In this document: positions 41,018-54,691 of the stretch, in pieces | Numbering within the stretch: the first letter of the stretch is position 1 | Layout: each line of letters starts with the position of its first letter | Assembly: GCA_049318825.1 (NCBI GenBank) | Contig: JBMOFM010000006.1 | Coordinates: 50,013-114,012, forward strand | From: Alphaproteobacteria bacterium | GTDB lineage: Bacteria; Pseudomonadota; Alphaproteobacteria; JBMOFM01 | DNA: 64,000 bases | Reading direction: 5' to 3' | The notes under the pieces: model-generated | The model's input: the letters and a program-made list of their open reading frames with translations, nothing else | Told to the model about the DNA's origin: nothing | The model's database searches: none | Translations under genes and position numbers: made by a program

Positions 41018-41926
41018 CTATCTCAGGCTTTGTGGGCGCTGCCATAAACAGGCGGTAAATAATAGAAGCCCTGCCACCAATACCATCATGGGGGCGGCCA
41101 CAAAAGCATGTTCTATGCCTAGCCATGCGGGCAGTAATATAGCCAAACTATAACCAAGAGTGGCACTGAAAGCAGCCAATATGGAACTTAAAATAATTTG
41201 GTGGGCAAGATTTTGGGTAAGCAAGCGCGCGGTTGCTGGGGGGCATACCAGAAAGCCTACCACCAGAATAGAACCCACCGCTTCAAAAGCAGCCACCAAG
41301 CATAACACTAATAAACCCAGAAAAATCAATTGCCATAAGCCCACTTGGTATCCAGCCACCCGTGCAAAAATGGGATCAAAACATATAAGACGTGTTTCTT
41401 TGAATAATAGGAGTAGCAATACGCCTAATCCCAGCAATAATAACCACAACATCGCCAATTGGCGGGGCATATTTAATAGGGTTTCTGTATGAAATAGATC
41501 CTGTATCTGTTGCAATTCTGGCCAATATACCATTTCCAGCGCCCCATAAAGGGCATGTTGTGCATCTAAATGCACCTGTCTGCCCAATTGTTGCTCTAGC
41601 AGCATTACCCCCAAGGCAAACATGCCGGTTAGTACCACCCCCATGGCCATTGACGGTTGTAAGCCCCCCCAGCGGCTAAGGGCAGCCATTAGTAAAACCG
41701 CCAGTAAACAGGCGGCGCCTGCCCCCAACATCATGAATAAAGGCGAAATAATACCAGTAAGCAAAAAGGCAACCGCTAGCCCCGGTAGCACCACATGGCT
41801 TAGGGCATCCCCCAGTAAGGCATGGCGGCGCAATAATAAATAATTACCCAACAGGGCACAATTCATGGCGGCTAAAATCGCCACCAGTAAAGGGGCGGCA
41901 TCTACAGCCCAAAAACTACTCATCAT
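41018..41926 (-). CDS. metal ABC transporter permease (Znu/Mnt/Tro-type), subunit 2
   Basis: 302 aa, polytopic, ABC-3 family pattern. Adjacent to a second permease, an ATPase and a cluster-A-1 SBP. Confidence 0.7.
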   Translation of the reverse strand: MMSSFWAVDAAPLLVAILAAMNCALLGNYLLLRRHALLGDALSHVVLPGLAVAFLLTGIISPLFMMLGAGAACLLAVLLMAALSRWGGLQPSMAMGVVLTGMFALGVMLLEQQLGRQVHLDAQHALYGALEMVYWPELQQIQDLFHTETLLNMPRQLAMLWLLLLGLGVLLLLLFKETRLICFDPIFARVAGYQVGLWQLIFLGLLVLCLVAAFEAVGSILVVGFLVCPPATARLLTQNLAHQIILSSILAAFSATLGYSLAILLPAWLGIEHAFVAAPMMVLVAGLLLFTACLWQRPQSLR

Positions 41927-42772
41927 TTAGGCTATTCTCCGCAATAAACGAACGGGTAGGGCTAATAACACTAGGCCAAAGCCCAATAAAACAATCATTG
42001 AACCGGTGGGAATATTGGGGTAGCGGCTGGATAATATAACCCCTAACATGGCACTGGTTACACCCAATAAAGCGGCCATAGCAAAAAGTGGCCGCAGGCG
42101 TTGGGTTAGCATTTTAGCGGCGGCGGCTGGCATAATTAACATGGCTAATACCAATACTACCCCCACGGTTTTTAAGCCCAAACATACAACCACCAGCATT
42201 AAGGATGTCATCACCCCATCCAGCCTAGCTGCTTGATAGCCTTGTAAATGGCTGAAATTGGGATCAAAAGCCAACATGATATATTGCTTGCGTAGAATGA
42301 AGGCAATGAATAATACCGCCACCATGGCAAGGCTTAAAAAAATAATCTCATCCTTTTGCAAGGAAGCGGTTTGCCCTAATAAAAAAGAATCCAGCCCCGC
42401 AATGCTGCCTAGCGGTAAATGTTGAATATAGCCCAATAATAAAAGACCTGCCGCAAAAAAAACGCTTAAGACCACGGCTATGGCGGTATCAGCACTTAAT
42501 ATGCTGCGCCGCTGCAGCCAATTGACGGTAAACATGCCAAGCCAAGCAGTGAGAAAAGCCATGAACAGCATGAGGGGTAAATGTCGTCCCTCGTGCCAGC
42601 CTAAGGAAAGTGCCAGTAAAAAACCCAGTGCCACCCCCGGTAGGGTGGCATGGCTAGCGGCATCTGCGGCCATGGCGCGGCCACGCAGCATCATGAAAAC
42701 GCCGATTACTGCTGCCCCTAAGCCTAAAATAGCGGTACCCAATAACACTAAAAGAGAATTGTAACCAATCAT
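41927..42772 (-). CDS. metal ABC transporter permease, subunit 1
   Basis: 281 aa, polytopic, ABC-3 family. Confidence 0.7.
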   Translation of the reverse strand: MIGYNSLLVLLGTAILGLGAAVIGVFMMLRGRAMAADAASHATLPGVALGFLLALSLGWHEGRHLPLMLFMAFLTAWLGMFTVNWLQRRSILSADTAIAVVLSVFFAAGLLLLGYIQHLPLGSIAGLDSFLLGQTASLQKDEIIFLSLAMVAVLFIAFILRKQYIMLAFDPNFSHLQGYQAARLDGVMTSLMLVVVCLGLKTVGVVLVLAMLIMPAAAAKMLTQRLRPLFAMAALLGVTSAMLGVILSSRYPNIPTGSMIVLLGFGLVLLALPVRLLRRIA

Positions 42773-43716
42773 GGCGCCACAGCCCGAGCACGGGGGGCAG
42801 AATAATGAGGGGCTGCTTGGGCAGCAAACCCTTCTATTTTTTTGGCGTCTGGTGAAAAAACGCCTTGCCTGATGTGGGGAATATTTCTTAACCTTGCCTC
42901 AAATGACCCTGCTTCAAATGCCTGCACCAATTCTCTACCCGAATAAATTTTCCCATCCTTGCTATGGTCAATCACAACTGATTCTGAATGAGCTGCAGCC
43001 ATTACTCGATCATGGACTTGAGGATAAAACTCTTGCCATTGATTTAAGAAGGCATTGATTTCTGGATTATTGAAATTTTTCCAGTAACCGGGCCATAATA
43101 TTTCCTGAAATTCAGGCATTTTTTTTGTTTCTAGATGTTCTATCTCTAAAGAGGCTTGGGCATATTCTTTGGGTTCTTTTGTAGGGTTTTCCAATATTAA
43201 TTGTCTTTCTTCTCTGGCTTCCTGTACCAATTTTCTAAAGGGTTCAAGCATGGGATTAACAATATAGCTAAGGTTTGTTTCAAAACGTTCAAGTATGAAC
43301 ATCATTTTATGAAAATCTGCTTTGGCCTCAGCCTCAATCACCTTTTCAACAAACCCTTCTTTATCCAGCCGATAAGGATTGAGGTGTAAATTATCTTTAT
43401 TGCGATGATGACCCTCTAACTCATGGGGTAAGGTTTCAGCATAATGGAGGACTATTAATGGCTCCAATGGATTATCCAAGTTACAATTAGCCGTTACACG
43501 ATTAGGGTTCAAATTAAGAAATAACTTATTATCATCACTATTCCATATTGAAGCATGAGGACCGTTTTCAGAAATAAGAACGGGCACATCATGGGTTTTC
43601 AGATATTCTATCGATAATTTGCCTTTATTGGTTTTATTTAGCTCAATCAGAATATTAAAAAACCAAAGAACATGGCGTTCTTTATCGCTATCGCCTTGCC
43701 AATCAAATGGAAGCAT
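42769..43716 (-). CDS. hypothetical 315-aa cytoplasmic protein inserted between the ATPase and permease genes of the metal ABC operon
   Basis: No recognisable motifs except LPHELEGHHRN. ATGA overlap with the permease start. No signal peptide. Confidence 0.4.
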   Translation of the reverse strand: MLPFDWQGDSDKERHVLWFFNILIELNKTNKGKLSIEYLKTHDVPVLISENGPHASIWNSDDNKLFLNLNPNRVTANCNLDNPLEPLIVLHYAETLPHELEGHHRNKDNLHLNPYRLDKEGFVEKVIEAEAKADFHKMMFILERFETNLSYIVNPMLEPFRKLVQEAREERQLILENPTKEPKEYAQASLEIEHLETKKMPEFQEILWPGYWKNFNNPEINAFLNQWQEFYPQVHDRVMAAAHSESVVIDHSKDGKIYSGRELVQAFEAGSFEARLRNIPHIRQGVFSPDAKKIEGFAAQAAPHYSAPRARAVAP

Positions 43717-43788
43717 CGTTTTATGCCCTTATGGCTATTGTTATGCTTAACAATATATCATTTATGTAAAATATACTCAACCTATCTG

Positions 43789-44523
43789 TCACCCAAATAA
43801 TAGTTGGCCAGCATAGGCTTGTTGTAATATAGCGGGGGTAAATACTTCTTTTACCGTGCCACAGCCATAAAGATGACGGTTCAAAATAACAGCATGGCTA
43901 AAATATTGAGGCACGCTAGGCAAATGATGATGTACACAAATAATGGTTTTGCCTTTTTGCTGTTCGGCTAGCATCAGCTTAAATAATAATTCTTCACTGG
44001 CAGCATCCACACCCGCCAGTGGTTCATCCATGATATAACAATCAGCCTGTTGTACTAAGGCTCTGGCAAAAAACGCCCGTTGCTGTTGCCCGCCCGATAG
44101 GGCACCAATCGAGCGGCGGGCAAAATCGGCTAGCCCCACCGCTTCTAAAGCAGCATGGGCTTTTTCTTTATCCTGCTTATTCAGCCCCCGCAACCAACCG
44201 CGTTGGCGGTATAAACCCATGCCGACCACCTCGGCGGCGGATACTGGAAATTGCCAATCCACCGCTGCCCGTTGTGGTATATAGGTAATGCGTTGGCGGA
44301 TGGAATCTAGCGCTTGATTCCAAAATAGCACCTTGCCTTTTTCTTTAGCCACCAACCCCACCATGGCTTTTACCAGCGTGCTTTTACCCGCACCATTAGC
44401 ACCGATAACCGCAGTAAGGCTGGCAGTGGGCAGCGAGAAACTCACATCAATTAAAGCGGGTTGGTTTTGGTAAGAAACCGATAAATTTTCAACATTCAGG
44501 CATATATCGGGGCTGGCATTCAT
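43789..44523 (-). CDS. metal ABC transporter ATP-binding protein
   Basis: Walker A GANGAGKST, signature LSGGQQQR, Walker B YIMDEP. Confidence 0.85.
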   Translation of the reverse strand: MNASPDICLNVENLSVSYQNQPALIDVSFSLPTASLTAVIGANGAGKSTLVKAMVGLVAKEKGKVLFWNQALDSIRQRITYIPQRAAVDWQFPVSAAEVVGMGLYRQRGWLRGLNKQDKEKAHAALEAVGLADFARRSIGALSGGQQQRAFFARALVQQADCYIMDEPLAGVDAASEELLFKLMLAEQQKGKTIICVHHHLPSVPQYFSHAVILNRHLYGCGTVKEVFTPAILQQAYAGQLLFG

Positions 44524-45473
44524 GGCTGTGCTGCCTCGCTGGTTAATTTTCCGCTCATGCCATTGGCGGGAACATTACCGCCCAGTGCCTTGCCAATCAT
44601 GGTCACATTATGGTCAATCATGCCCACATAAGTGCCTTCATAGGTTAAGGGTTTGCCCATGGCATCAGAAAATAAATGGCCGCCAATCAGTAAGCGGTGA
44701 TTTTTTGCGGCCGAGCCTTCTACCAAGGCCTTGATGTTGCGGTCACTTACCGAAGTTTCGGCAAATACGGCTGGTATATTGCGGGCTACAATTAAGGCCA
44801 CCAGCTCTTCAATTTGCTTTAAGCCTGCTTCGCTATCGGTTGAAATGCCTTGTATGCCATGCACTTCAATGCCATAACGCTGGCCAAAATAATGAAACGC
44901 ATCATGAGCGGTAATTAAAGCGCGTTTTTCGGCAGGAATAGAAGCAATAACCTGTTTGGCATAGGCATCAAGCTGTTGTAATTCTTGATCATAGGCCGTT
45001 AAATTGCGGGTAAATTCGGCTTCATGCTGGGGCAAGGCCTTGATTAAGGCAGCGGCAGTTTTGTGTAATGCTGCGCGCCAGCGTTCAACATCCATCCACA
45101 CATGCGGGTCGATGCCATGATGGGCATTGCCGCTACCATCATCGGCCACGGCCAGCACCAATTTGTTGGCGGCTAATTTTTCCAACAAATCAGTCATTTT
45201 TCCTTCTAAATTCAGGCCGCTATAAAACACCATATCGGCTTGTTGTAGCTTTACCATATCGCTGCGGGTGGGGCGGTAGAGATGGGGATCCACCCCTTCA
45301 CCCATCATGATGTCCAACCTTACATGATCGCCGGCCACATGGCGCACTAAATCCCCCACCTGTGCGGTGGTGGTCACAATAAATAACGGCGGGGCAGCAT
45401 GGGCATAAGCCGCAAAAAATAGCCAACCTAGACCCAACACAGCCCATAAACAGAAACGATAACAAAATTTCAT
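44520..45473 (-). CDS. periplasmic metal-binding protein (ZnuA/MntC/TroA cluster A-1 SBP)
   Basis: Signal peptide; His-containing metal-site motifs; HDAFHYFGQRYGIEVHGIQGIS. Confidence 0.8.
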   Translation of the reverse strand: MKFCYRFCLWAVLGLGWLFFAAYAHAAPPLFIVTTTAQVGDLVRHVAGDHVRLDIMMGEGVDPHLYRPTRSDMVKLQQADMVFYSGLNLEGKMTDLLEKLAANKLVLAVADDGSGNAHHGIDPHVWMDVERWRAALHKTAAALIKALPQHEAEFTRNLTAYDQELQQLDAYAKQVIASIPAEKRALITAHDAFHYFGQRYGIEVHGIQGISTDSEAGLKQIEELVALIVARNIPAVFAETSVSDRNIKALVEGSAAKNHRLLIGGHLFSDAMGKPLTYEGTYVGMIDHNVTMIGKALGGNVPANGMSGKLTSEAAQP

Positions 45474-45523
45474 GGGATAAACTCAAGCGAAAACTATCCC
45501 TTGATGTTTACCATCGGCTTCTA

Positions 45524-45543
45524 AATTTAGCAATGGCTAAATT
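45524..45543. promoter_or_regulatory. candidate DtxR/MntR-family operator in the metal ABC operon promoter
   Basis: Perfect palindrome AATTTAGC-aatg-GCTAAATT (TTAGC...GCTAA core resembles DtxR/MntR boxes). It lies 50-70 bp upstream of the SBP start. A DtxR-family regulator is encoded 0.5 kb away. Confidence 0.4.
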
Positions 45544-45554
45544 GCGTTTTGGAG

Positions 45555-45860
45555 CTAACCAATCCTGAAACGTGGCTGAATACGATAGATCCCATCGGCC
45601 GCTTTTTCTACATAAGCATTGAGGCGATCTCCTTTTACGTCCATTGTACTCATCATCCCAGGTAACCACAAACGTAACCTCAATCCAGCTTGATGGGCGC
45701 TGTGTTTCAAATCTTCAACCACAGGGTCTGGTCCAACCAACTGAGGCACAACAAAGCTTCCACGGGATGTATCGCGGGTTGTTTCAATAATATTGACTGA
45801 AAGACCAGAAAAACGGTTAAATTCTTCGCTAATTGAAGGAGGAGCCATTTGTGATCTCAT
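45555..45860 (-). CDS. peptidase inhibitor I78-family protein
   Basis: C-terminal LRLWLPGMMSTMDVKGDRLNAYVEKAADGIYRIQP matches the I78 signature (PG.MVTMDYR.DRLN...D..G.I). Confidence 0.45.
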   Translation of the reverse strand: MRSQMAPPSISEEFNRFSGLSVNIIETTRDTSRGSFVVPQLVGPDPVVEDLKHSAHQAGLRLRLWLPGMMSTMDVKGDRLNAYVEKAADGIYRIQPRFRIG

Positions 45861-46016
45861 ATTTTAGGGGTGTAAATTATCTTGGTGTTTCTATAATATA
45901 GCCACGGCAATTTCAATGTTTAAGTTTTTGGGGCTAAATATTGGCAGGGGTGAAGTGCTTGCATCCTGCTATTATTCGGGTTATGCAATAGGCAAAAATA
46001 GATTAAAGATATAAAA

Positions 46017-46439
46017 ATGAAACAAAAACTTGTTGATGCTAGCACCCAAGCCAAGCGTTTTGAGACATTGCGGGTGGCGCATCAAACAGAAACCACCGAA
46101 GATTATGTGGAATTGATTGCTGATTTATTGGCCGCCAATGGTGAAGCCAGATTGGTGGATTTATCGCGCCGTTTTGGGGTTTCACATGCCACGGCTAATA
46201 AAATTATTGCGCGGTTACAAAAAGAGGGGTTTGTAGAAAGCCAGCCTTACCGTTCATTGTTTTTAACCCCTGAAGGGCTGGCCCTAGCGCAAGCATGCAA
46301 AAAACGGCACAATATTGTGTTGCAATTTTTGCTGCATATTGGCGTAAGCCGCGAAAATGCTGAAACCGATGCAGAAGGCATCGAGCATCATGTTAGTCAA
46401 GAAACCCTAGCGGCTTTTGCCCGCTTTACAACCGCCTGA
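46017..46439 (+). CDS. mntR: DtxR/MntR-family metal-dependent transcriptional regulator
   Basis: HTH VDLSRRFGVSHATANKIIARLQKEGFV plus a dimerisation/metal-binding helix region. 140 aa, no SH3-like domain, so MntR-type. Confidence 0.75.
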   Translation: MKQKLVDASTQAKRFETLRVAHQTETTEDYVELIADLLAANGEARLVDLSRRFGVSHATANKIIARLQKEGFVESQPYRSLFLTPEGLALAQACKKRHNIVLQFLLHIGVSRENAETDAEGIEHHVSQETLAAFARFTTA

Positions 46440-46483: not shown

Positions 46484-47791
46484 ATGAAGGGTTTAACGCG
46501 CCAGCAATGGATTGTTTTTATTGCGGCTTGGTTGGGTTGGGGCTTTGATGTTTTTGACGGATTGCTGTTCAATTACGTTGCCCCCAATTGCGTGCCAACC
46601 CTGTTGGGGCTTGAGATTGGCTCTCCTGCTGCCAAGGCTGCCACTTTGTATTGGACAGGCCTCATCACCTCTATGCTATTGCTGGGCTGGGCGGCAGGTG
46701 GAATTATTTTCGGCTATATTGGCGATAGGTTAGGGCGCAGTAAAACCCTGTTGCTCACCATGTTATTATATGCTTTGGGTACTGGCTTATGTGCTTTTGT
46801 GCCGAATATGGAATTATTATTACTGTGCCGTTTTATTGCCAGCCTTGGTATTGGTGGGGAATGGGCAGCGGGGGCTTCCATGGTGGCCGAAGCCATGCCC
46901 GAAAAATACCGCGTGGAAGCAGGGGCGTTGTTATATACCTCTGCGCCCATTGGGTTGTTTTTGGCCACAGCGGTGAATGCGATGATTACTGGTTTATTTC
47001 CTGATCAACCTGAGGTCTCGTGGCGTTATGTTTTTCTTTGTGGGTTAATTCCTGCTGCTTTAGCCTTTGTTATCCGTTTTTTCTTAAAAGAACCAGAACG
47101 CTGGCAAGAGGTGGCACAAAAGACAAAACCACCCCGTATTAGTGAATTATTTTCAGCCGAAAACCGCCGCTTTACTCGCAGCGGCGTATTAATGGCTTTG
47201 ATTGCTTTGCTCACATGGTGGAGTTGCAATGCTTTTATTCCCGTGGTGGCGGTGGGTCTAGGCCATGCCAGTGCAGAGGCTACAGGCATTATCGCCACGC
47301 AAGGCTTATTAGAAGGCTGGAAATCATGGCTTACTTCTGGCTTTAATTTGGGTGGCTTATTGGGTACATTGCTCACTATTCCAGCGGCCAAAATATTGGG
47401 CAGAAAAAAAATGTTCAGCCTTTATTTTGCGCTGGCTTCTCTTGCGTTACTCACGGCTTTTAGTGGGTTCATGCCGCAAGAGAAAATAGTGTGGACGGGC
47501 TTATATTTTGTGATTGGTCTCACGGTTTTTGGCGTATTTGGTAGTTTTACTTTTTACCTACCGGAACTTTTTCCTACCAGATTGCGCGCTACGGGTTCGG
47601 GCTTTTGCTATAATATTGGCCGCGTGATTACCTCTGTGGGCCCTTTTTTGGTCGGCAGCATCGCCGCACAAAAATCCAACGCCCTGCAAGGCGCGTTGGA
47701 TTTATTATTCTGGGTGGGCTTTATTCCCTTAATTGGCATTTTACTGATGCCTTTAGTGATAGAAACAAAAGGCCAAACATTGCGGGATTAG
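46484..47791 (+). CDS. MFS transporter
   Basis: 435 aa with 12 predicted TM and MFS loop motifs (G-x-x-x-D-R-x-G-R-like GDRLGRSKTLL). Confidence 0.7.
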   Translation: MKGLTRQQWIVFIAAWLGWGFDVFDGLLFNYVAPNCVPTLLGLEIGSPAAKAATLYWTGLITSMLLLGWAAGGIIFGYIGDRLGRSKTLLLTMLLYALGTGLCAFVPNMELLLLCRFIASLGIGGEWAAGASMVAEAMPEKYRVEAGALLYTSAPIGLFLATAVNAMITGLFPDQPEVSWRYVFLCGLIPAALAFVIRFFLKEPERWQEVAQKTKPPRISELFSAENRRFTRSGVLMALIALLTWWSCNAFIPVVAVGLGHASAEATGIIATQGLLEGWKSWLTSGFNLGGLLGTLLTIPAAKILGRKKMFSLYFALASLALLTAFSGFMPQEKIVWTGLYFVIGLTVFGVFGSFTFYLPELFPTRLRATGSGFCYNIGRVITSVGPFLVGSIAAQKSNALQGALDLLFWVGFIPLIGILLMPLVIETKGQTLRD

Positions 47792-49593
47792 TTGGATTGG
47801 CCATTATCAATTCTCTCCCCCATGAGGGCGCCATAGGCGGTGCTGAAGCCGGGGGTAGTGGCACCATTATATACCCCGCCTTCATGGGTGAAGTTCTGCA
47901 ATAGTTGGGTGTGTACCACCGCTATACCCGCTTGTACCAAATGCTGAACAAGTTGTGCCAATTCTATTCTGTTTTCTATAGCGGTGCCTTGATTTTTTAA
48001 CAGAAAGCGGCAGCGTTGATGATCCACCAGATAGGGGTCCATCAAGCTGGGCCACACCTCTTGCCCACGGTTGGTGATGCGTTGTAGCACATAATTTTCT
48101 CCCGCTGCTTCTTGCAATTGCTGCGCTAAAGATTGCAGAGCAATGATGGTTAATAACCGCCCCTGTTCTTGATATTTTTTCAATAGGGCAAGGGCTTCTG
48201 GTGCTGGCATTTGCTCAATAGATGCCGTGAAATAGCTATTATTAAACGACAAGCCGGCTTTTAAGGTGCGCACCCCCCAACTGATATATTCGCGTACACT
48301 CTCTGTTGTATGAAAATGGCTCACATTTAAGATGTCTTCATAATTTAAGCCTGTTTTCTGGTGCCAATATTGTAGAATATTGGCCTCTAATCCGTGCCAT
48401 TCAATAAACACATCCATCCCTAGAATATCGGTTTTTTGGGCTTTTACCAACATGGGTGGCGCCACGATTTTTTCTTTATGCGCGCGAAACTTATCCCATT
48501 TCAAGCAGCGTGCCTGTAGTGCCCCTTCTGGCACTTTTTGGCCGGATTTTATTTTTTCTAAACGCTGGGCAATTTCATCGCCAAATTCGTGGCAACCACG
48601 CTTTAATGAAACCGATGTTTCTTTCTCTTTTTCTTCTTGGTAAGCCCCGCGAATATCGCCAGTATGCACACCGTCTTGTAATGTCCATAACAGGGCATGG
48701 TATAAATGGCGCGCCGCTGTTTGATTACCATCGCCAATATGCACCAGCATATCAATAGCGGCCATTAATAAAGCCGTGGGGTTGGCCAGATTTTTGCCAG
48801 CAATATCGGGCGCGGTGCCGTGCATGGCTTCAAACATGGCATAATCTTGACCAATATTGGCTGAGCCCACCAAGCCAACGCCCCCCGCTAATTTTGCTGT
48901 AATATCTGAACCAATATCCCCAAAAATATTACTGGTAACCACCGCATCATATTTTTCTGGTTTAACTGCCAGTTCTGCTAGGCCATCATCAATATTTTTG
49001 AAAAATGAGGTGATGTGGGGCTCATATTCTTTAGCCAATTGCCAGAATATTTTTTCAAATAACCCGCCAGTATTTTTCAAAATATTGGGTTTTTCTAGCC
49101 CCAACATGGTTTTTCTACCCTGCTGCAGGGCCAATTCAAAAGCAATACGAATCGCTTTTTCACAGCCTTGATGGCTCATTAAACGCAAGGCCATTTTTAC
49201 ATTGGGGCTTTCATCATATTCAATGGCGGCGTATAAATCTTCAATATTTTCGCGCACAAATAATAAATCCATTTGTGGAAAATGGCTATCCACCACGGGG
49301 TAGAAGGAAGCACAGCGGCGCACCGAAACGCTTTGTTCAAAACCCTTACGCACCGTTACATTAAAGCTTTTACTGCCACCAATAGAAGAGGGGGTTTCTG
49401 TTGGCCCTTTCAGCACTATTTTATGCTTGCGAATAAGCGCAAAACAATCAGTAATTTCTTGCGCGCTGGCTTCTTTACCCAAATGGGCAGGAATAAAATC
49501 GATTTTCGCGCCCACTTTTTGTAAAAGACTAACCACCACATCACTAATTTCAGGCCCAATACCATCACCTTTAACCAAAACCACTGAACGCAT
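47788..49593 (-). CDS. isocitrate/isopropylmalate dehydrogenase-family enzyme fused to a roughly 255-aa C-terminal domain of unknown function
   Basis: N-terminal 345 aa: VVLVKGDGIGPEI, NIFGDIGSDITAKLAGGVGLVGSANIG, GTAPDIAGKNLANPTALLMA. The C-terminal 255 aa have no recognisable motif. Start set to ATG 49593 (RBS ggaga); the track extension to 49794 reads antisense through tRNA-His. Confidence 0.65.
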   Translation of the reverse strand: MRSVVLVKGDGIGPEISDVVVSLLQKVGAKIDFIPAHLGKEASAQEITDCFALIRKHKIVLKGPTETPSSIGGSKSFNVTVRKGFEQSVSVRRCASFYPVVDSHFPQMDLLFVRENIEDLYAAIEYDESPNVKMALRLMSHQGCEKAIRIAFELALQQGRKTMLGLEKPNILKNTGGLFEKIFWQLAKEYEPHITSFFKNIDDGLAELAVKPEKYDAVVTSNIFGDIGSDITAKLAGGVGLVGSANIGQDYAMFEAMHGTAPDIAGKNLANPTALLMAAIDMLVHIGDGNQTAARHLYHALLWTLQDGVHTGDIRGAYQEEKEKETSVSLKRGCHEFGDEIAQRLEKIKSGQKVPEGALQARCLKWDKFRAHKEKIVAPPMLVKAQKTDILGMDVFIEWHGLEANILQYWHQKTGLNYEDILNVSHFHTTESVREYISWGVRTLKAGLSFNNSYFTASIEQMPAPEALALLKKYQEQGRLLTIIALQSLAQQLQEAAGENYVLQRITNRGQEVWPSLMDPYLVDHQRCRFLLKNQGTAIENRIELAQLVQHLVQAGIAVVHTQLLQNFTHEGGVYNGATTPGFSTAYGALMGERIDNGQSN

Positions 49594-49717
49594 ATATTCT
49601 CCTATTGATAAAAGGGCAGTTAGAGAGCCATTTTTCTTTGCATGTGTCATCCTGACTTGAAAACAATATTGACGAAAGAGTAAAAATCTGAATAATGCAG
49701 TTTTATTAGTTAAGCAT

Positions 49718-49793
49718 GGCGGTTGTAGCTCAGCGGTAGAGCCCTCGGTTGTGGTCCGAGTTGTCGTGGGTTCGAACCCCATCAATCGCCCCA
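49718..49793 (+). tRNA. tRNA-His (GTG anticodon), with encoded G-1 and CCA
   Basis: Cloverleaf: G-1, acceptor gcggttg/caatcgc, D-arm tagctcagcggtagagc, anticodon stem ctcgg/ccgag with loop ttGTGgt, T-arm gtgggttcgaaccc, discriminator C, CCA. Confidence 0.85.
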
Positions 49794-49812
49794 TTCTTCA
49801 ACGATAATCTAT

Positions 49813-49903: not shown

Positions 49904-50491
49904 TTATGGCACACCCGCCAGATAGCCTTCCACCAAAGCAAAGGCCATGGCTTCTGGTGAAGAAGCGCCGGTAATCGCCAATTTGCCTGAAAGAGCTAAA
50001 ATAGTGATGCCATGAATACCCGCCCATAATATTTTGGCGGTTTGTTTTATGCTGGCTTCATCTTGCAGATTGGGGGCAATAGCTGTTTCTAATTGTTGGA
50101 AAAACCGTTGTAATTTTTCTTGATACCATAAGGGTATCTCATAATCTGGGCTGGCATGATACTCAAATAAGCCAAGCCAAGATTGTTGATGCTGCTCGCT
50201 ATATTGCAGATAAAATCGTGCCAAGCGGTGAATTAAGGAAAGATTATCTTCTTGCGCCAAGGCGGCCATCATGGCTTCATACCAATGGTCAAGGGTTTTG
50301 GCGTTAATATGGGTCATTAAATGATCGTAACTACCAAAAACATGATATAAAGTGCCCACGGAATAGCCTATTTTATTGGCCACCGCGCGGGCACTGAAAT
50401 TTTTTATTCCCTGTTCGCTAATCAGTTCATGCCCTGTATCAATAATCAGCTGTACCAATTCATCACGGCTATGATCCGAGCGTCTGGCCAT
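49904..50491 (-). CDS. TetR-family transcriptional regulator
   Basis: N-terminal HTH ...FSARAVANKIGYSVGTLYHVF. About 195 aa. Confidence 0.75.
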   Translation of the reverse strand: MARRSDHSRDELVQLIIDTGHELISEQGIKNFSARAVANKIGYSVGTLYHVFGSYDHLMTHINAKTLDHWYEAMMAALAQEDNLSLIHRLARFYLQYSEQHQQSWLGLFEYHASPDYEIPLWYQEKLQRFFQQLETAIAPNLQDEASIKQTAKILWAGIHGITILALSGKLAITGASSPEAMAFALVEGYLAGVP

Positions 50492-50493
50492 GG

Positions 50494-51555
50494 CTAGCCC
50501 CCCCATAAATGGCGTAAAGATTCTTCAGCTTTTTTATGTTGCGGGGTGAAGTCTATATCCCCCTTACCACCAGCTTGTGGATCGGTGAGCCAACGCCAGA
50601 TTAATACATGGCTGATATAGGGTTTGTTCAGCGTTTCAATCCACCAGCTTAAAATCTTGGCCTGCAACAGCTCATCAAATGGTGCTTGCCGTTCTTCGGG
50701 GCTGCGCCATGGTTCTGCTTGGGCATTTTGTGCCGACATCAAACCAATTTCGGTAATACTCACCGGCTTTTTATAGCGGGCGGAAAGGCGGGCTATTTGC
50801 TGTTCGGTTTGTTGCATTACCCCTTTTATATATTGCTCGTTCGGGGTTTCCCCCATTTTGGGGTAAAGGGTGATGCCAATCTCATCCACCAATGGCCAGA
50901 AAGGAACGCTGAGCGCGCCTTCTATACCATGAGCAACATAGATAATTTTACCGCGATAAACCCGCCTCACCCGCTCAATTAATAAAGGCCAGCGCGGGTG
51001 ATCTTGCGATTTATTCAACTCGGTACCCACGGCAAAATAAGCGCAACCAGCCTGTTGGGCAAGGGTGGCATAATATAAAATCACGCGTTCATAGGCATCA
51101 AACCAATGTTCCCACGCCTCACCATTGGGCGGTTCTATGGCACCCGCCCAACTGCCTTCTACCCATATATGGGGCTTTAGCATAATGGTAAAGCCTTGTT
51201 CGTGCGCCTGTTTAATGCCTTGCAATAAATCATTATCATGCACGGCCCTACCAAAATCTACCCGTGCGGCGCGGTTATTTTCCATCCACGCAAAAGGAAT
51301 AAAGGCCAGAACCCTAGCCCCCACAGAATCGGCCAATTGTAGCGATTGGCGAAACCCAGCACTGCCATAGGGCACATGATCGGCTTGAATAAGGTTAAAA
51401 CCACCCATGGGTTTAATAATGGTGGGGTTACGGGTGGTTTTTTTAAGGGGTGATTTGTTGTATAACCTGCCACCATTCAGTAATAATCCAGCCCCGCCCA
51501 AAATCCCCACAAGGCCAGTAAACATAATTTGCCGCCTGCTCAGCCATTTTGCCAT
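50494..51555 (-). CDS. secreted (Tat-type signal) glycoside hydrolase, clan GH-A-like (GH5/GH26/GH113-type (beta/alpha)8)
   Basis: N-terminal SRRQIMFTGLVGILGGAG looks like a twin-arginine signal. Candidate catalytic acid/base is GTELN and candidate nucleophile is TEIG. Confidence 0.4.
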   Translation of the reverse strand: MAKWLSRRQIMFTGLVGILGGAGLLLNGGRLYNKSPLKKTTRNPTIIKPMGGFNLIQADHVPYGSAGFRQSLQLADSVGARVLAFIPFAWMENNRAARVDFGRAVHDNDLLQGIKQAHEQGFTIMLKPHIWVEGSWAGAIEPPNGEAWEHWFDAYERVILYYATLAQQAGCAYFAVGTELNKSQDHPRWPLLIERVRRVYRGKIIYVAHGIEGALSVPFWPLVDEIGITLYPKMGETPNEQYIKGVMQQTEQQIARLSARYKKPVSITEIGLMSAQNAQAEPWRSPEERQAPFDELLQAKILSWWIETLNKPYISHVLIWRWLTDPQAGGKGDIDFTPQHKKAEESLRHLWGG

Positions 51556-52232
51556 CAGCTTAAAGCCTTACTTAAACTGGCCGCCAGTTTGCGGTATAAT
51601 AGTGTTTCTGCAGTATAAGCTTGCTGCATGAGTTGATAATCAGGGTCAAGCGGCAGTAATTCCCGCGCTACATCGGTCAAATGGCCTTCTTCTTCTTGTA
51701 ATAGGCCTGCCAATGAAAATTCAGAGGGGGTGTATTGTTGATAAGCCCACACCGCCCGTACTTCAACCAACCCCGTTACCAATAAATAACAAGTGCGGGT
51801 AATATGCTGGCTGCGGTTTTTCTGCACCAACCGATTGACCGTGGCATCCAACCGTGCAAAATAGAGGCGGGCGGCACTGGCGGCCAGTAGCTCATCATTT
51901 TCCCATCCCAAGCTTTTTTCGGCCAGTTTTTCTGCTTGCCGCTTAAAGAAAAAAGCATGGCGTGCCTCTTCAGCTAAATGCTGTAATACATCCTTATCGG
52001 GTTGAAGCCCATGCGAATGCGTCGCCATAATTTTGCGGCTGCCAATATGTTCCATCATGGATAGGGTATTGCAAAATTTAGCATGGGTTATTTTATTAGC
52101 CACCACCCGTTGCAATATATGCTCCAGCAATAAATTATCAGGATTGCTGGGGGCAAGCAGGCCAAAAACCTGCCATGGCTCATGCAGCGGCGATGCGGGT
52201 TTGGTCGGTATAGGCGCGGTCGATAAGCTCAT
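51555..52232 (-). CDS. hypothetical protein with two E-x-x-H motifs (possible ferritin-like/di-metal carboxylate protein)
   Basis: EEARHAFFF and EEEGH on predicted helices. Start uncertain (track 52316; MSLSTAP at 52232; later Mets possible). Overlaps the bioA 3' end. Confidence 0.3.
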   Translation of the reverse strand: MSLSTAPIPTKPASPLHEPWQVFGLLAPSNPDNLLLEHILQRVVANKITHAKFCNTLSMMEHIGSRKIMATHSHGLQPDKDVLQHLAEEARHAFFFKRQAEKLAEKSLGWENDELLAASAARLYFARLDATVNRLVQKNRSQHITRTCYLLVTGLVEVRAVWAYQQYTPSEFSLAGLLQEEEGHLTDVARELLPLDPDYQLMQQAYTAETLLYRKLAASLSKALS

Positions 52233-53466
52233 AAACCCGTTCCAATTCTTCAGTGGGGGTACAATAGGGCGGTAATATATATAGCACATGCCCCAATGGC
52301 CGCAATAGCACCCCATGCCTCAGAAACCAGTGCCGCAGGGAAGGGCCTAAACAGGCCAGATAACCAGCATCATCGGCTGGAAATTCAATGGCGGCCATCA
52401 CCCCGCAGCTACGGGTGACGGCATGGTGCTTATTGGCAAAATCCTTCACAAAATCTGCATGTAAGCCGCTAATACGCTTGATCTGTGTGTGGGGTTCATC
52501 GGTTTCCCATATTTTGCAATTGGCTACGGCCGCAGCACAGGCCAAAGGGTTTGCCGTGAAGGAGCTGGAATGGAAAAAACTGCGCGCGCGCGAGGTGCTA
52601 TAAAAGGCTTGATAAATTTCTTCACTGCATAAAGTGGCGGCCAAGGGTAAAAAACCAGCGGTTAAACCCTTGGCGGTGCATAAAATATCTGGCACAACGC
52701 CGGCTTGTTCACAGGCAAATAATGTACCGCTGCGCCCCCAACCTGTCATCACCTCATCAGCAATCACATAAATGCCATGAGCACGCACCATGGCCACCAT
52801 TTGGGCAAAAATTTCTGGCCGCCACATTAACATGCCGCCCGCGCCCAAAATCAAGGGTTCTACAATCATCGCCGCTACTTCTGTGCCATGCTTTTGTAAA
52901 TAATCGGCCAGCCATGCTAGGCTGGCTTGTTCATTGGCTGGGTGCGGAAAAGGAATGCGATCCACCGCAAAAAGCAGCGAATCATAGCTTTGTGAAAAAA
53001 TATTACGCGCTCCCACCGCCATGGCACCAAAACTATCCCCATGATAGGCATGCTCCATGGCTAAAATTCTGGTGCGTGGCGGTTGCTGGTGATCCATAGC
53101 GTGGTGATAATGTGCCCCCACCGCCATTTTCAGGGCAACTTCTACCGCCAAAGAGCCGGAATCAGTAAAAAATACTTTGGATAATCCCTTAGGAGCAAAT
53201 TTCAGCAAATATTGCGCCAATTCTTGTGCAGGGGGGTGGGTGAAACCCGCAAAAATTACCTGATCCAATCGAGCCGCCTGCTCACTAATGGCCTTGACCA
53301 ATCGTGGATCTCCATGGCCATGGGTAATCACCCACCATGAAGATATAGCATCCAGAATGGGGGTGCCCTGTTCAGGAAACAACCAGCACCCTTCAGCACT
53401 TTCTATACTGATAATATTTTCTTCTAACCCATGTTGGGTAAAAGGGTGCCAAATAACAGAGCTCAT
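52180..53466 (-). CDS. bioA: adenosylmethionine-8-amino-7-oxononanoate aminotransferase
   Basis: Class-III aminotransferase with N-terminal IWHPFTQH, DEVMTGWGRSG, and PLP-Lys in CTAKGLTAG. Start moved to MSSVIW (53466). The track start at 53493 lies inside a tandem repeat array. Confidence 0.75.
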   Translation of the reverse strand: MSSVIWHPFTQHGLEENIISIESAEGCWLFPEQGTPILDAISSWWVITHGHGDPRLVKAISEQAARLDQVIFAGFTHPPAQELAQYLLKFAPKGLSKVFFTDSGSLAVEVALKMAVGAHYHHAMDHQQPPRTRILAMEHAYHGDSFGAMAVGARNIFSQSYDSLLFAVDRIPFPHPANEQASLAWLADYLQKHGTEVAAMIVEPLILGAGGMLMWRPEIFAQMVAMVRAHGIYVIADEVMTGWGRSGTLFACEQAGVVPDILCTAKGLTAGFLPLAATLCSEEIYQAFYSTSRARSFFHSSSFTANPLACAAAVANCKIWETDEPHTQIKRISGLHADFVKDFANKHHAVTRSCGVMAAIEFPADDAGYLACLGPSLRHWFLRHGVLLRPLGHVLYILPPYCTPTEELERVYELIDRAYTDQTRIAAA

Positions 53467-53472
53467 TATTGT

Positions 53473-53541
53473 TCCATAAAAAAGACTAGCCATAAAAAAG
53501 GGTTGGCCATAAAAAAGGGTTGGCCATAAAAAAGGGCTGGC
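53473..53541. repeat. 17-bp tandem repeat (about 4 units) in the bioA leader
   Basis: (t/g)ccataaaaaag(a/g)(c/g)t(a/t)g units: tccataaaaaagactag, gccataaaaaagggttg x2, gccataaaaaagggctg. The last unit merges into a terminator hairpin. Confidence 0.7.
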
Positions 53542-53581: not shown

Positions 53582-54691
53582 TTACTGCGTAATAGAAGCA
53601 GTGTTGCTATTGCCTTGTTGAATAATACCAGCAATGTTACCAAAACCAGTTTGTATGAAGCTTTGGTAGTTGCTATCACCAATTTGTGAAGCGGTAATCA
53701 CGTTACCACCACTATATTGGCTAGCATAAATGCTGTTGAAATTACCAATTTGTTCGCCAGAGAAGCTTTGGTAATCATTTTCTTGATACAGCACGATGAT
53801 GTTGCTGTTGCCATTTTGGTAGGCATAAGCATAATCATAATTGCCCAATTGGGTAATATCAATCAGGTTATTTTCACCAAAGCTGTATAAATTAGTTGTA
53901 TTAAATTCACCCACGCGGAACAGGTTAATCACGTTGAACGTGCCAGCACCGCCCGTGCTATCTTGGTAAATAGAATCGGAGTTATTATCCCCAGTTTGGA
54001 TCAGGCTGTAGCTGTTGCCATCGCCATATTGAGAAATCAAACCAAAATTATTATTACCATCTTGCTCTAAATAAGCCTGATTATTGGAGCCATTTTGGTA
54101 CAAAATACCAAGGTTATAATTACCATTTTGCAAAATGCTGGCTAGGTTATTATCGCCATTTTCCTGCACGATGCTGGCGGCATTACCATCGCCATATTGG
54201 CTGATGGAGCCACTATTGCCCGAACCATTATATTGGGTAAGGAAAGTAGCGTTGCCATTGTCTTGGCTGTAAATAGAGCCAATGTTAGAATCGCCAAACT
54301 GAAGAGCATTAGATTGGTTATCATCGCCATATTGGGTGATAGAAAACACATTACCATTACCCACTTGGAAACCATATTGGTAGCCCGAATCGGTAAAATA
54401 AATACCGGGGCCTACAGAATTGCCATTACCATATTGGTTAACGCTAGCATTGTTGCTGTTGCCATTTTGTAAAAAAGGTTGAAACACACCTTCATTCAAA
54501 AAACCAATAATGTTGCTATCGCCTTGCTGATTGCCATAAAAGCTGTTGCCCTCACCGCTTACCTGATCGATACCCACTTGGTTGTTGAGGCCAGATTGGC
54601 TGATGGTGCTGGAGTTGCTATCAGCGTGCGCTGCGCTTGCTGCTAGGGTTAGCACCAACGCCATGGTGCCAAATAGAAAATTCTTGCTCAT
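53582..54691 (-). CDS. secreted curlin-repeat protein (CsgA/CsgB-like functional amyloid subunit)
   Basis: Signal peptide ...AASAAHA, then at least 10 imperfect 20-23-aa repeats with the curlin consensus S-x-I-x-Q-x-G-x-x-N-x-A-x-I-x-Q (ISQYGDGNAASIVQENGDNNLASILQNGNYNLGILYQNGSNNQAYLEQDGNNNFGLISQYGDGNSYSLIQTGDNNSDSIYQ). Confidence 0.6.
   Translation of the reverse strand: MSKNFLFGTMALVLTLAASAAHADSNSSTISQSGLNNQVGIDQVSGEGNSFYGNQQGDSNIIGFLNEGVFQPFLQNGNSNNASVNQYGNGNSVGPGIYFTDSGYQYGFQVGNGNVFSITQYGDDNQSNALQFGDSNIGSIYSQDNGNATFLTQYNGSGNSGSISQYGDGNAASIVQENGDNNLASILQNGNYNLGILYQNGSNNQAYLEQDGNNNFGLISQYGDGNSYSLIQTGDNNSDSIYQDSTGGAGTFNVINLFRVGEFNTTNLYSFGENNLIDITQLGNYDYAYAYQNGNSNIIVLYQENDYQSFSGEQIGNFNSIYASQYSGGNVITASQIGDSNYQSFIQTGFGNIAGIIQQGNSNTASITQ

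Follow-up and report, generated by a model that had tools for sequence, protein, structure and literature searches.

A rare helical insertion in the C-terminal domain of a probable alphaproteobacterial isocitrate dehydrogenase of Thermus/Rickettsia type

Introduction

A gene on the minus strand at 47788..49593 of a 64,000-nucleotide stretch (the window) of contig JBMOFM010000006.1, from a metagenome-assembled genome (MAG) labelled Alphaproteobacteria bacterium (GenBank assembly GCA_049318825.1), encodes a protein of 601 amino acids in which the Iso_dh part is followed in frame by ∼ 256 further residues, and the question raised by this locus is what those residues are. A preliminary description, made from the letters of the window and its open reading frames (ORFs), regarded the extension as an unexplained fusion to a dehydrogenase of the isocitrate dehydrogenase/isopropylmalate dehydrogenase family. 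The analysis presented here makes it probable that the locus contains one intact gene for a TCA-cycle-type isocitrate dehydrogenase (IDH) with the architecture of the Thermus/Rickettsia enzymes (‘subfamily IV’), preferring NAD+ and carrying a rare insertion in its C-terminal domain. This corrects an apparent oddity: what looked like a ‘fusion’ is how a known, little-studied IDH subfamily is normally built, and the locus should not be read as encoding a new fusion enzyme.

Most of the C-terminal extension belongs to a known domain

The catalytic domain is recognized by the Pfam model Iso_dh (PF00180) over residues 4–322 (48628..49584, minus strand, as for all parts of the gene given below) with E 5.1e-65 and 220.4 bits against a gathering score of 27, which bears out the family named in the preliminary description, and it superposes on IDH structures with Foldseek template modelling (TM) scores of 0.85–0.94 (target-normalised). 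The residues that follow had been held to contain no recognisable motif. However, residues 487–572 match PF18324 (Bacterial isocitrate dehydrogenase, C-terminal domain) with E 1e-17 and 64.6 bits (gathering score 25), covering positions 18–102 of the 110 in the model, while the first strand of the domain is set apart from the remainder by an insertion. The top NCBIfam models, PRK09222 and TIGR02924 (ICDH_alpha), both full-length models of 473–482 positions, align in two collinear pieces at residues 3–408 and 487–573, and the same division is found against the 496-residue IDH of Thermus thermophilus (TtIDH; PDB 2D1C), where residues 4–323 correspond to residues 22–344 of the chain and residues 487–574 to residues 403–489. 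The statistics of these domain matches are far beyond chance.

An AlphaFold2 single-chain model built on 116 homologues, with a predicted local distance difference test (pLDDT) score of 92.9 and a predicted TM score (pTM) of 0.91, gives 2D1C as its top Foldseek match in the PDB over the whole chain (599 columns, E 1.8e-39, TM 0.87 target-normalised), and both domains of the model superpose on this solved member. A match to the C-terminal extension of a characterised IDH subfamily, which the preliminary description had itself named as grounds for refutation, is found with PF18324, with PRK09222 and TIGR02924, with 2D1C and in the predicted fold, and it overturns the earlier view that known IDHs are not fused in this way, since the Thermus- and Rickettsia-type IDHs possess a unique C-terminal domain (PMC3521221; PMC4360740; PDB 2D1C). 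When the extension was searched for another domain family, Pfam and NCBIfam at E ≤ 1 returned only insignificant matches to DUF2605 (0.13) and an IS6 transposase (0.05–0.2), and a PDB profile search with the C-terminal domain and its insertion returned only 2D1C, the other matches (helical designs and a homeodomain) being insignificant at E > 0.1.

Vinekar et al. (2012; PMC3521221) placed in subfamily IV homodimers of 480–500 residues, divided into a Rickettsia and a Thermus subgroup, whose unique C-terminal region of ∼ 100–140 residues forms a larger clasp-like structure over a reduced clasp. The same longer C-terminus was noted by Wang et al. (PMC4360740), who cite a 2014 structure paper on a ‘novel terminal domain’. 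The architecture proposed for the window protein would accordingly consist of an Iso_dh domain (approximately residues 1–330), a conserved helix and linker, and a ferredoxin-like C-terminal domain. In the solved T. thermophilus enzyme this last domain covers the reduced clasp, packing at the dimer interface as a second, larger clasp, and by analogy with 2D1C such a role is the most likely one in the window protein.

A helical insertion in the C-terminal domain

Compared with canonical members, the window protein has an excess of ∼ 120 residues, distributed over three places. In the alignment the linker measures 72 residues against ∼ 55, the interval from the first β-hairpin of the C-terminal domain to its next strand 101 residues against 18–26, and the final segment 102 residues against ∼ 80. 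The first β-hairpin (residues 384–399, LGMDVFIEW; 48397..48444) includes a strand modelled at 384–398 and aligns with residues 386–399 of TtIDH. Between this hairpin and the first helix of the domain lies a confidently modelled insertion of ∼ 85 residues (residues ∼ 400–486; 48136..48396), containing helices 404–414, 430–445, 457–460 and 464–476 and the start of helix 478–497; canonical Thermus-type IDHs have no counterpart of it, and its site corresponds to the step from ∼ 399 to 403 in TtIDH. The core of the domain (residues 487–581; 47851..48135), which carries the PF18324 match, follows as a helix, strands, a helix and a hairpin, and the chain ends in a tail (residues 582–601; 47791..47850) that is ∼ 10–20 residues longer than in canonical members. 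The tail motif, G-x-S-x-x-Y-G-x-x-x-G, is specific to the long forms, among which S584, Y587 and G592 do not vary; the canonical forms terminate instead in G-Y-S-x-x-Q-G-E. The description of the extension as unexplained consequently fails for most of its length and stands for ∼ 45% of it, made up of the insertion (∼ 85 residues), the additional linker (∼ 17) and the tail (∼ 20).

The insertion would expand the first helix of the C-terminal domain into a small helical bundle. Tentatively, and by analogy with 2D1C, it may enlarge the clasp-like domain and so alter subunit assembly or add a regulatory surface, although we would not put this at even odds; that it adds a separate enzymatic function we do not think to be the case. 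A rival proposal is that the C-terminal domain and insertion together form an ACT-like allosteric module which binds a metabolite and controls the catalytic domain, rather than serving mainly as an element of assembly. Mitochondrial NAD-dependent IDHs, which are related, are allosteric, and charged residues invariant in the clade cluster in the insertion and the adjacent strands (R434, R505, R509, E512, D519, R527 and R529), both of which speak for ligand sensing. However, the C-terminal domain has no ACT match in Pfam and gave no specific match to ACT-family domains in sequence or structure, and the literature covered mentions no ligand of the C-terminal domain of 2D1C. What has been described in print is a clasp-like element of the dimer (PMC3521221), and on balance we regard a ligand-sensing module as unlikely.

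A rare clade of long-form enzymes

The insertion is present in 29 of the 116 homologues. Run against 1.84 billion representative proteins, a profile of the insertion-bearing C-terminal domain reached E ≤ 1e-3 for just 28, of which the window protein and the homologues P0003 (624 residues), P0135 (639), P0025 (764) and P0035 (731) are full length; each of the six shorter matches that were inspected is a fragment or a chimeric partial ORF. P0134 and P0141 are short predicted proteins in which unrelated N-terminal sequence is joined to fragments of the long-form insertion; most likely they are assembly chimeras or frameshifted partial ORFs and not independent occurrences of the helical module.

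Neighbour-joining trees with 200 bootstraps were calculated from the columns of the catalytic domain only, so that the insertion cannot drive the result. The long forms were separated from the 28 canonical forms in 200 of 200 bootstraps. Within them, the forms of 730–800 residues are monophyletic with 100% bootstrap, P0002 and P0003 fall together with the window protein (80%) and P0135 branches separately. The clade is marked in the catalytic domain by VRRC in place of VRPC, EKPNILK in place of SKDNIMK and IDDGLA in place of IDIGTA, and it presents invariant residues at R434 and L481 in the insertion and at R505, T507, R509, E512, D519, S584, Y587 and G592 in the core and tail. A rare clade, to which the relatives of 730–800 residues belong, has the insertion as a shared derived character. 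An order of events is suggested by this distribution: the insertion in the C-terminal domain, present throughout the clade, would have come first, and the N-terminal insertion and the changed motifs, seen only in the longer branch, would have followed. Searches of the literature for long-form or insertion-bearing IDHs found nothing; the helical insertion is rare and undescribed, in a domain and subfamily that are already known. That the window protein, P0002, P0003, P0135 and the family of 730–800 residues make up an undescribed fifth dimer-type IDH architecture, in which the insertion confers a new quaternary structure or allosteric control, is a possibility that we lean against.

The 600–650-residue forms still score against PF18324, whereas those of 730–800 residues reach it only below threshold. 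Because the window protein scores against this model, it bridges the unannotated longer family to the Thermus domain and ties the otherwise unannotated C-terminal 350 residues of that family to it, a result of modest value for the evolution of IDHs. In the longer branch the nucleotide loop is altered (His to Gly, Pro to Asp), and its cofactor use or function may have diverged further. A scan of a genome collection with the pattern T[SN]RG[TL]E[IV][YW]P[TS] retrieved only loci of the 730–800-residue type; the pattern misses the TNRGQEVWPS of the window protein, and the scan is therefore uninformative on species with the 600–650-residue form.

Members of the longer family (for example at L003:4573-6765 and L005:4261-6807; P0014, P0025, P0035, P0058, P0073 and P0110) are annotated as ‘hypothetical’ or with generic names. 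Their loci range in GC from 35% to 67% and come from MAGs labelled Verrucomicrobia, Proteobacteria, Gemmatimonadota and others. For one locus, L008, from a MAG labelled Cyanophyceae, the flanking genes share 94–100% protein identity with their counterparts in L009 (Verrucomicrobiales) and L007 (Limisphaerales). Binning contamination is the probable origin of this 5.5-kb ‘cyanobacterial’ contig.

Cofactor preference

In the preliminary description GTAPDIAGKNLANP had been taken for the usual C-terminal helix of the dehydrogenase; it is instead the nucleotide-binding loop, residues 259–272, which corresponds to residues 340–353 of the Escherichia coli enzyme (Icd). Alignment with Icd places D263, I264 and A270 (48784..48807) opposite K344, Y345 and V351, positions which are among the determinants of cofactor use in E. 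coli (PMC10574006). The NADP-dependent TtIDH carries K-Y where the window protein has D263-I264. An aspartate at position 344 is said, after work attributed to Chen, Greer and Dean in 1995 and cited in PMC4360740, to be the classical NAD signature. On the strength of these substitutions NAD+ specificity is predicted, and the enzyme should prefer NAD+.

An NADP+-dependent enzyme is the alternative. The name of the family PRK09222 is ‘NADP-dependent isocitrate dehydrogenase’, the characterized Thermus enzyme was solved as an NADP+ complex (2D1C; PMC12667214), and Y318 and K322 possibly lie opposite two E. coli residues in contact with the 2′-phosphate of NADP, Y391 and R395, although the alignment is gapped here and the correspondence uncertain; given these possible counterparts, some use of NADP by the enzyme is conceivable. 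Yet D263, I264 and A270 stand at positions that are key determinants (PMC10574006), TtIDH itself retains the K-Y pair, and the Rickettsia-type members of subfamily IV are described as NAD-dependent (PMC3521221), so that dependence on NADP+ appears improbable and ‘NADP-dependent’, as the family is labelled, is probably incorrect for the 601-residue protein.

Substrate and the weight of the assignment

The isocitrate-binding motif S76-F-N78-V-T-V-R82 (49348..49368) aligns with E. coli S113, N115 and R119, and its columns S76, N78 and R82 are invariant in the 116 homologues. S76 is also aligned with Ser98 of TtIDH, a residue that corresponds to E. coli Ser113 (PMC12667214). The pairwise alignment with Icd further places R92, R114, Y121, K168 and D202 opposite R129, R153, Y160, K230 and D283, while the assignment of D226 and D230 to D307 and D311 comes from the conserved GDxxSD motif and not from counting along the alignment. 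The full set of ten isocitrate, metal and catalytic residues, from S76 to D230, is present, and none of them varies in the same 116 homologues. The two IDH models of NCBIfam give 432 and 386.1 bits, far above the models for homoisocitrate dehydrogenase (AksF2, 214 against a cut-off of 540), isopropylmalate dehydrogenase (LeuB, 158 against 393) and tartrate dehydrogenase (149 against 501), none of which reaches its own cut-off. Because the residues are intact and the IDH models far outscore the others, we infer isocitrate as the predicted substrate, which the enzyme would oxidatively decarboxylate to 2-oxoglutarate with a divalent metal.

Several points weigh against an NAD+-preferring subfamily-IV IDH as the identity of the protein. 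It falls short of the equivalog cut-offs of PRK09222 and TIGR02924, with 432 bits instead of 509 and 386.1 instead of 561.35, so that it is filed as a relative of these families and not as an equivalog member, and its 601 residues, with a 256-residue extension, exceed the 480–500 residues described for subfamily IV. It falls outside the canonical clade in the trees described above, for which reason the substrate is inferred rather than demonstrated. The NCBI Prokaryotic Genome Annotation Pipeline names the protein only as an ‘isocitrate/isopropylmalate family dehydrogenase’; the possible Y318 and K322 counterparts favour NADP; the position of the insertion relative to the dimer interface derives from published descriptions of 2D1C; and the neighbours of the gene (tRNA-His, a TetR regulator with a GH113 hydrolase, and an MFS transporter) offer no functional clue.

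The scores below the cut-offs, the substitutions VRRC, EKPNILK and IDDGLA and the generic name are also the grounds for supposing that the diverged clade has changed its function, and that the protein is a β-decarboxylating dehydrogenase for another substrate, such as homoisocitrate, 3-isopropylmalate, tartrate or D-malate, or an unknown hydroxy-acid. Against this stand the wide separation of the model scores and the conservation of the serine and asparagine that bind the γ-carboxylate (S76 and N78), and we consider a different substrate very improbable.

Integrity of the reading frame

The junction and linker (residues 323–383; 48445..48627) contain a conserved helix, modelled at 334–349 with the motif G-x-x-E-F-x-x-x-I, and are ∼ 17 residues longer than in canonical members. 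F337 within this helix is invariant in the 116 homologues, as are G392 and D394 in the following strand, L-G-x-D-V-F; model confidence dips to pLDDT 65–80 at linker residues 361–380. P0002, P0003 and P0135 are full length and their alignment is unbroken across the junction.

That a frameshift or lost stop has joined an IDH of ∼ 345 residues to a downstream gene is scarcely credible, since nothing but the weak confidence in the linker favours it, while the canonical subfamily-IV IDHs, 2D1C and four independent long-form lineages (P0002, P0003, P0135 and the 730–800-residue group) are collinear with the window protein, the residues F337, G392 and D394 do not vary, the whole chain is modelled with the high pTM given above and the same architecture recurs in loci of 35% to 67% GC. 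Homologues align unbroken across the domain junction and there is hence no frameshift; their collinearity, with that of 2D1C, rules out a two-gene fusion, and the extension is, as had been stated, in frame and a genuine part of the protein.

The gene and its neighbourhood

The complete coding sequence, that of a long-form, subfamily-IV-like IDH, comprises 601 codons and a TAA stop. The limits that the preliminary description had set for it, 47788–49593, agree with the ORF list, with the translation and with a Shine-Dalgarno sequence, AGGAG (49599..49603), separated by a spacer of 5 nt from the ATG at 49593; the N-terminus that begins there, MRSVVLVKGDGIGPE, matches the N-termini of the homologues in the alignment. 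The MAG protein that NCBI annotates as MFZ4762121.1 (P0001 in our set) has exactly this sequence. The version of the gene in the ORF track (47788..49794, 668 residues) arises because no stop interrupts the frame on the antisense strand of a tRNA-His (GTG) gene, placed by ARAGORN at 49719..49793 on the plus strand, which yields a spurious N-terminal extension of 67 codons, an artefact correctly identified at the outset. Also confirmed is the 4-nt overlap with the end of the MFS transporter gene (46484–47791, plus strand), where the two stop codons are convergent. The gene has a GC of 44.6% against 45.4% for the window, and tblastn detected no second IDH in the window.

There is no conserved gene partner between the window and the contig of P0003. 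Beside P0003 lie a gene for an FAD flavoprotein (FAD_binding_2 and Succ_DH_flav_C) and one for a quinolinate phosphoribosyltransferase, which are probably nadB and nadC. In the window, just past the tRNA-His gene, the gene of a TetR-family regulator (49904–50506, minus strand) shares 13 nt with the end of a gene for a GH113 glycoside hydrolase (50494–51555, minus strand), and the two are probably co-transcribed. An ORF of 253 residues at 51555–52316 (minus strand), with no Pfam match at E ≤ 0.001, overlaps by ∼ 135 nt the start of a class-III aminotransferase gene (52180–53493), an overlap that casts doubt on its start codon or on whether it is a real gene. Beyond it, at 53582–54691 (minus strand), lies a gene for a protein of 369 residues with curlin-associated repeats (PF07012, E 2e-32), which points to a subunit of curli-like amyloid fibres in this MAG. 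On the other side, a metal-uptake cluster on the minus strand (41018–46439) includes a ZnuA-family substrate-binding protein (44520–45473), an ABC ATPase (43789–44523) and, upstream, three more ORFs; on the strand opposite to the cluster lies a DtxR/MntR-type iron-dependent repressor (46017–46439), followed by the MFS transporter.

Comparison with known systems

The IDH of T. thermophilus HB8 (TTHA1535; 2D1C) presents the same succession of catalytic and ferredoxin-like C-terminal domains as the window protein and has all catalytic residues in common with it. The two differ in length (601 residues against 496), through the ∼ 85-residue insertion and the longer linker and tail of the window protein, and in the cofactor loop, where the NAD-type D-I-A of the window protein contrasts with the K-Y (NADP) of TtIDH; identity in the Foldseek alignment is ∼ 32%. 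The alphaproteobacterial or Rickettsia-type IDHs (TIGR02924, PRK09222) are the top-scoring curated families, the MAG is likewise labelled alphaproteobacterial, and most of their members carry the NAD-type motif APDIAG, as does the window protein. However, the window protein scores below the cut-offs of these families, its match to them is split by the insertion, and it belongs to a separate clade (100% bootstrap).

The IDH-like proteins of 730–800 residues (P0035, which is MBS0235909.1, a ‘hypothetical protein’; P0025, P0058 and P0073; loci L001–L012) form the sister group of the window type and share with it the insertion in the C-terminal domain, the tail motif and the clade-specific substitutions of the catalytic domain. 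Unlike the window protein, they have an additional N-terminal insertion of ∼ 65 residues, an insertion region in the C-terminal domain of ∼ 140 residues as against 101, MFETMGGTADDIA in place of MFEAxHGTAPDIA in the nucleotide loop and GDEPSRNVT in place of GGxKSxNVT in the substrate loop. After 2D1C, the closest catalytic domains are those of the NAD-dependent subfamily III enzymes (human IDH3, yeast IDH1/2, and those of Methylococcus, 6LKY, and Xanthomonas, 6M3S), which match that of the window protein with E 1e-60 to 1e-45 and TM ∼ 0.9 (target-normalised); at ∼ 335–355 residues these enzymes, in contrast to the window protein, are without any C-terminal domain.

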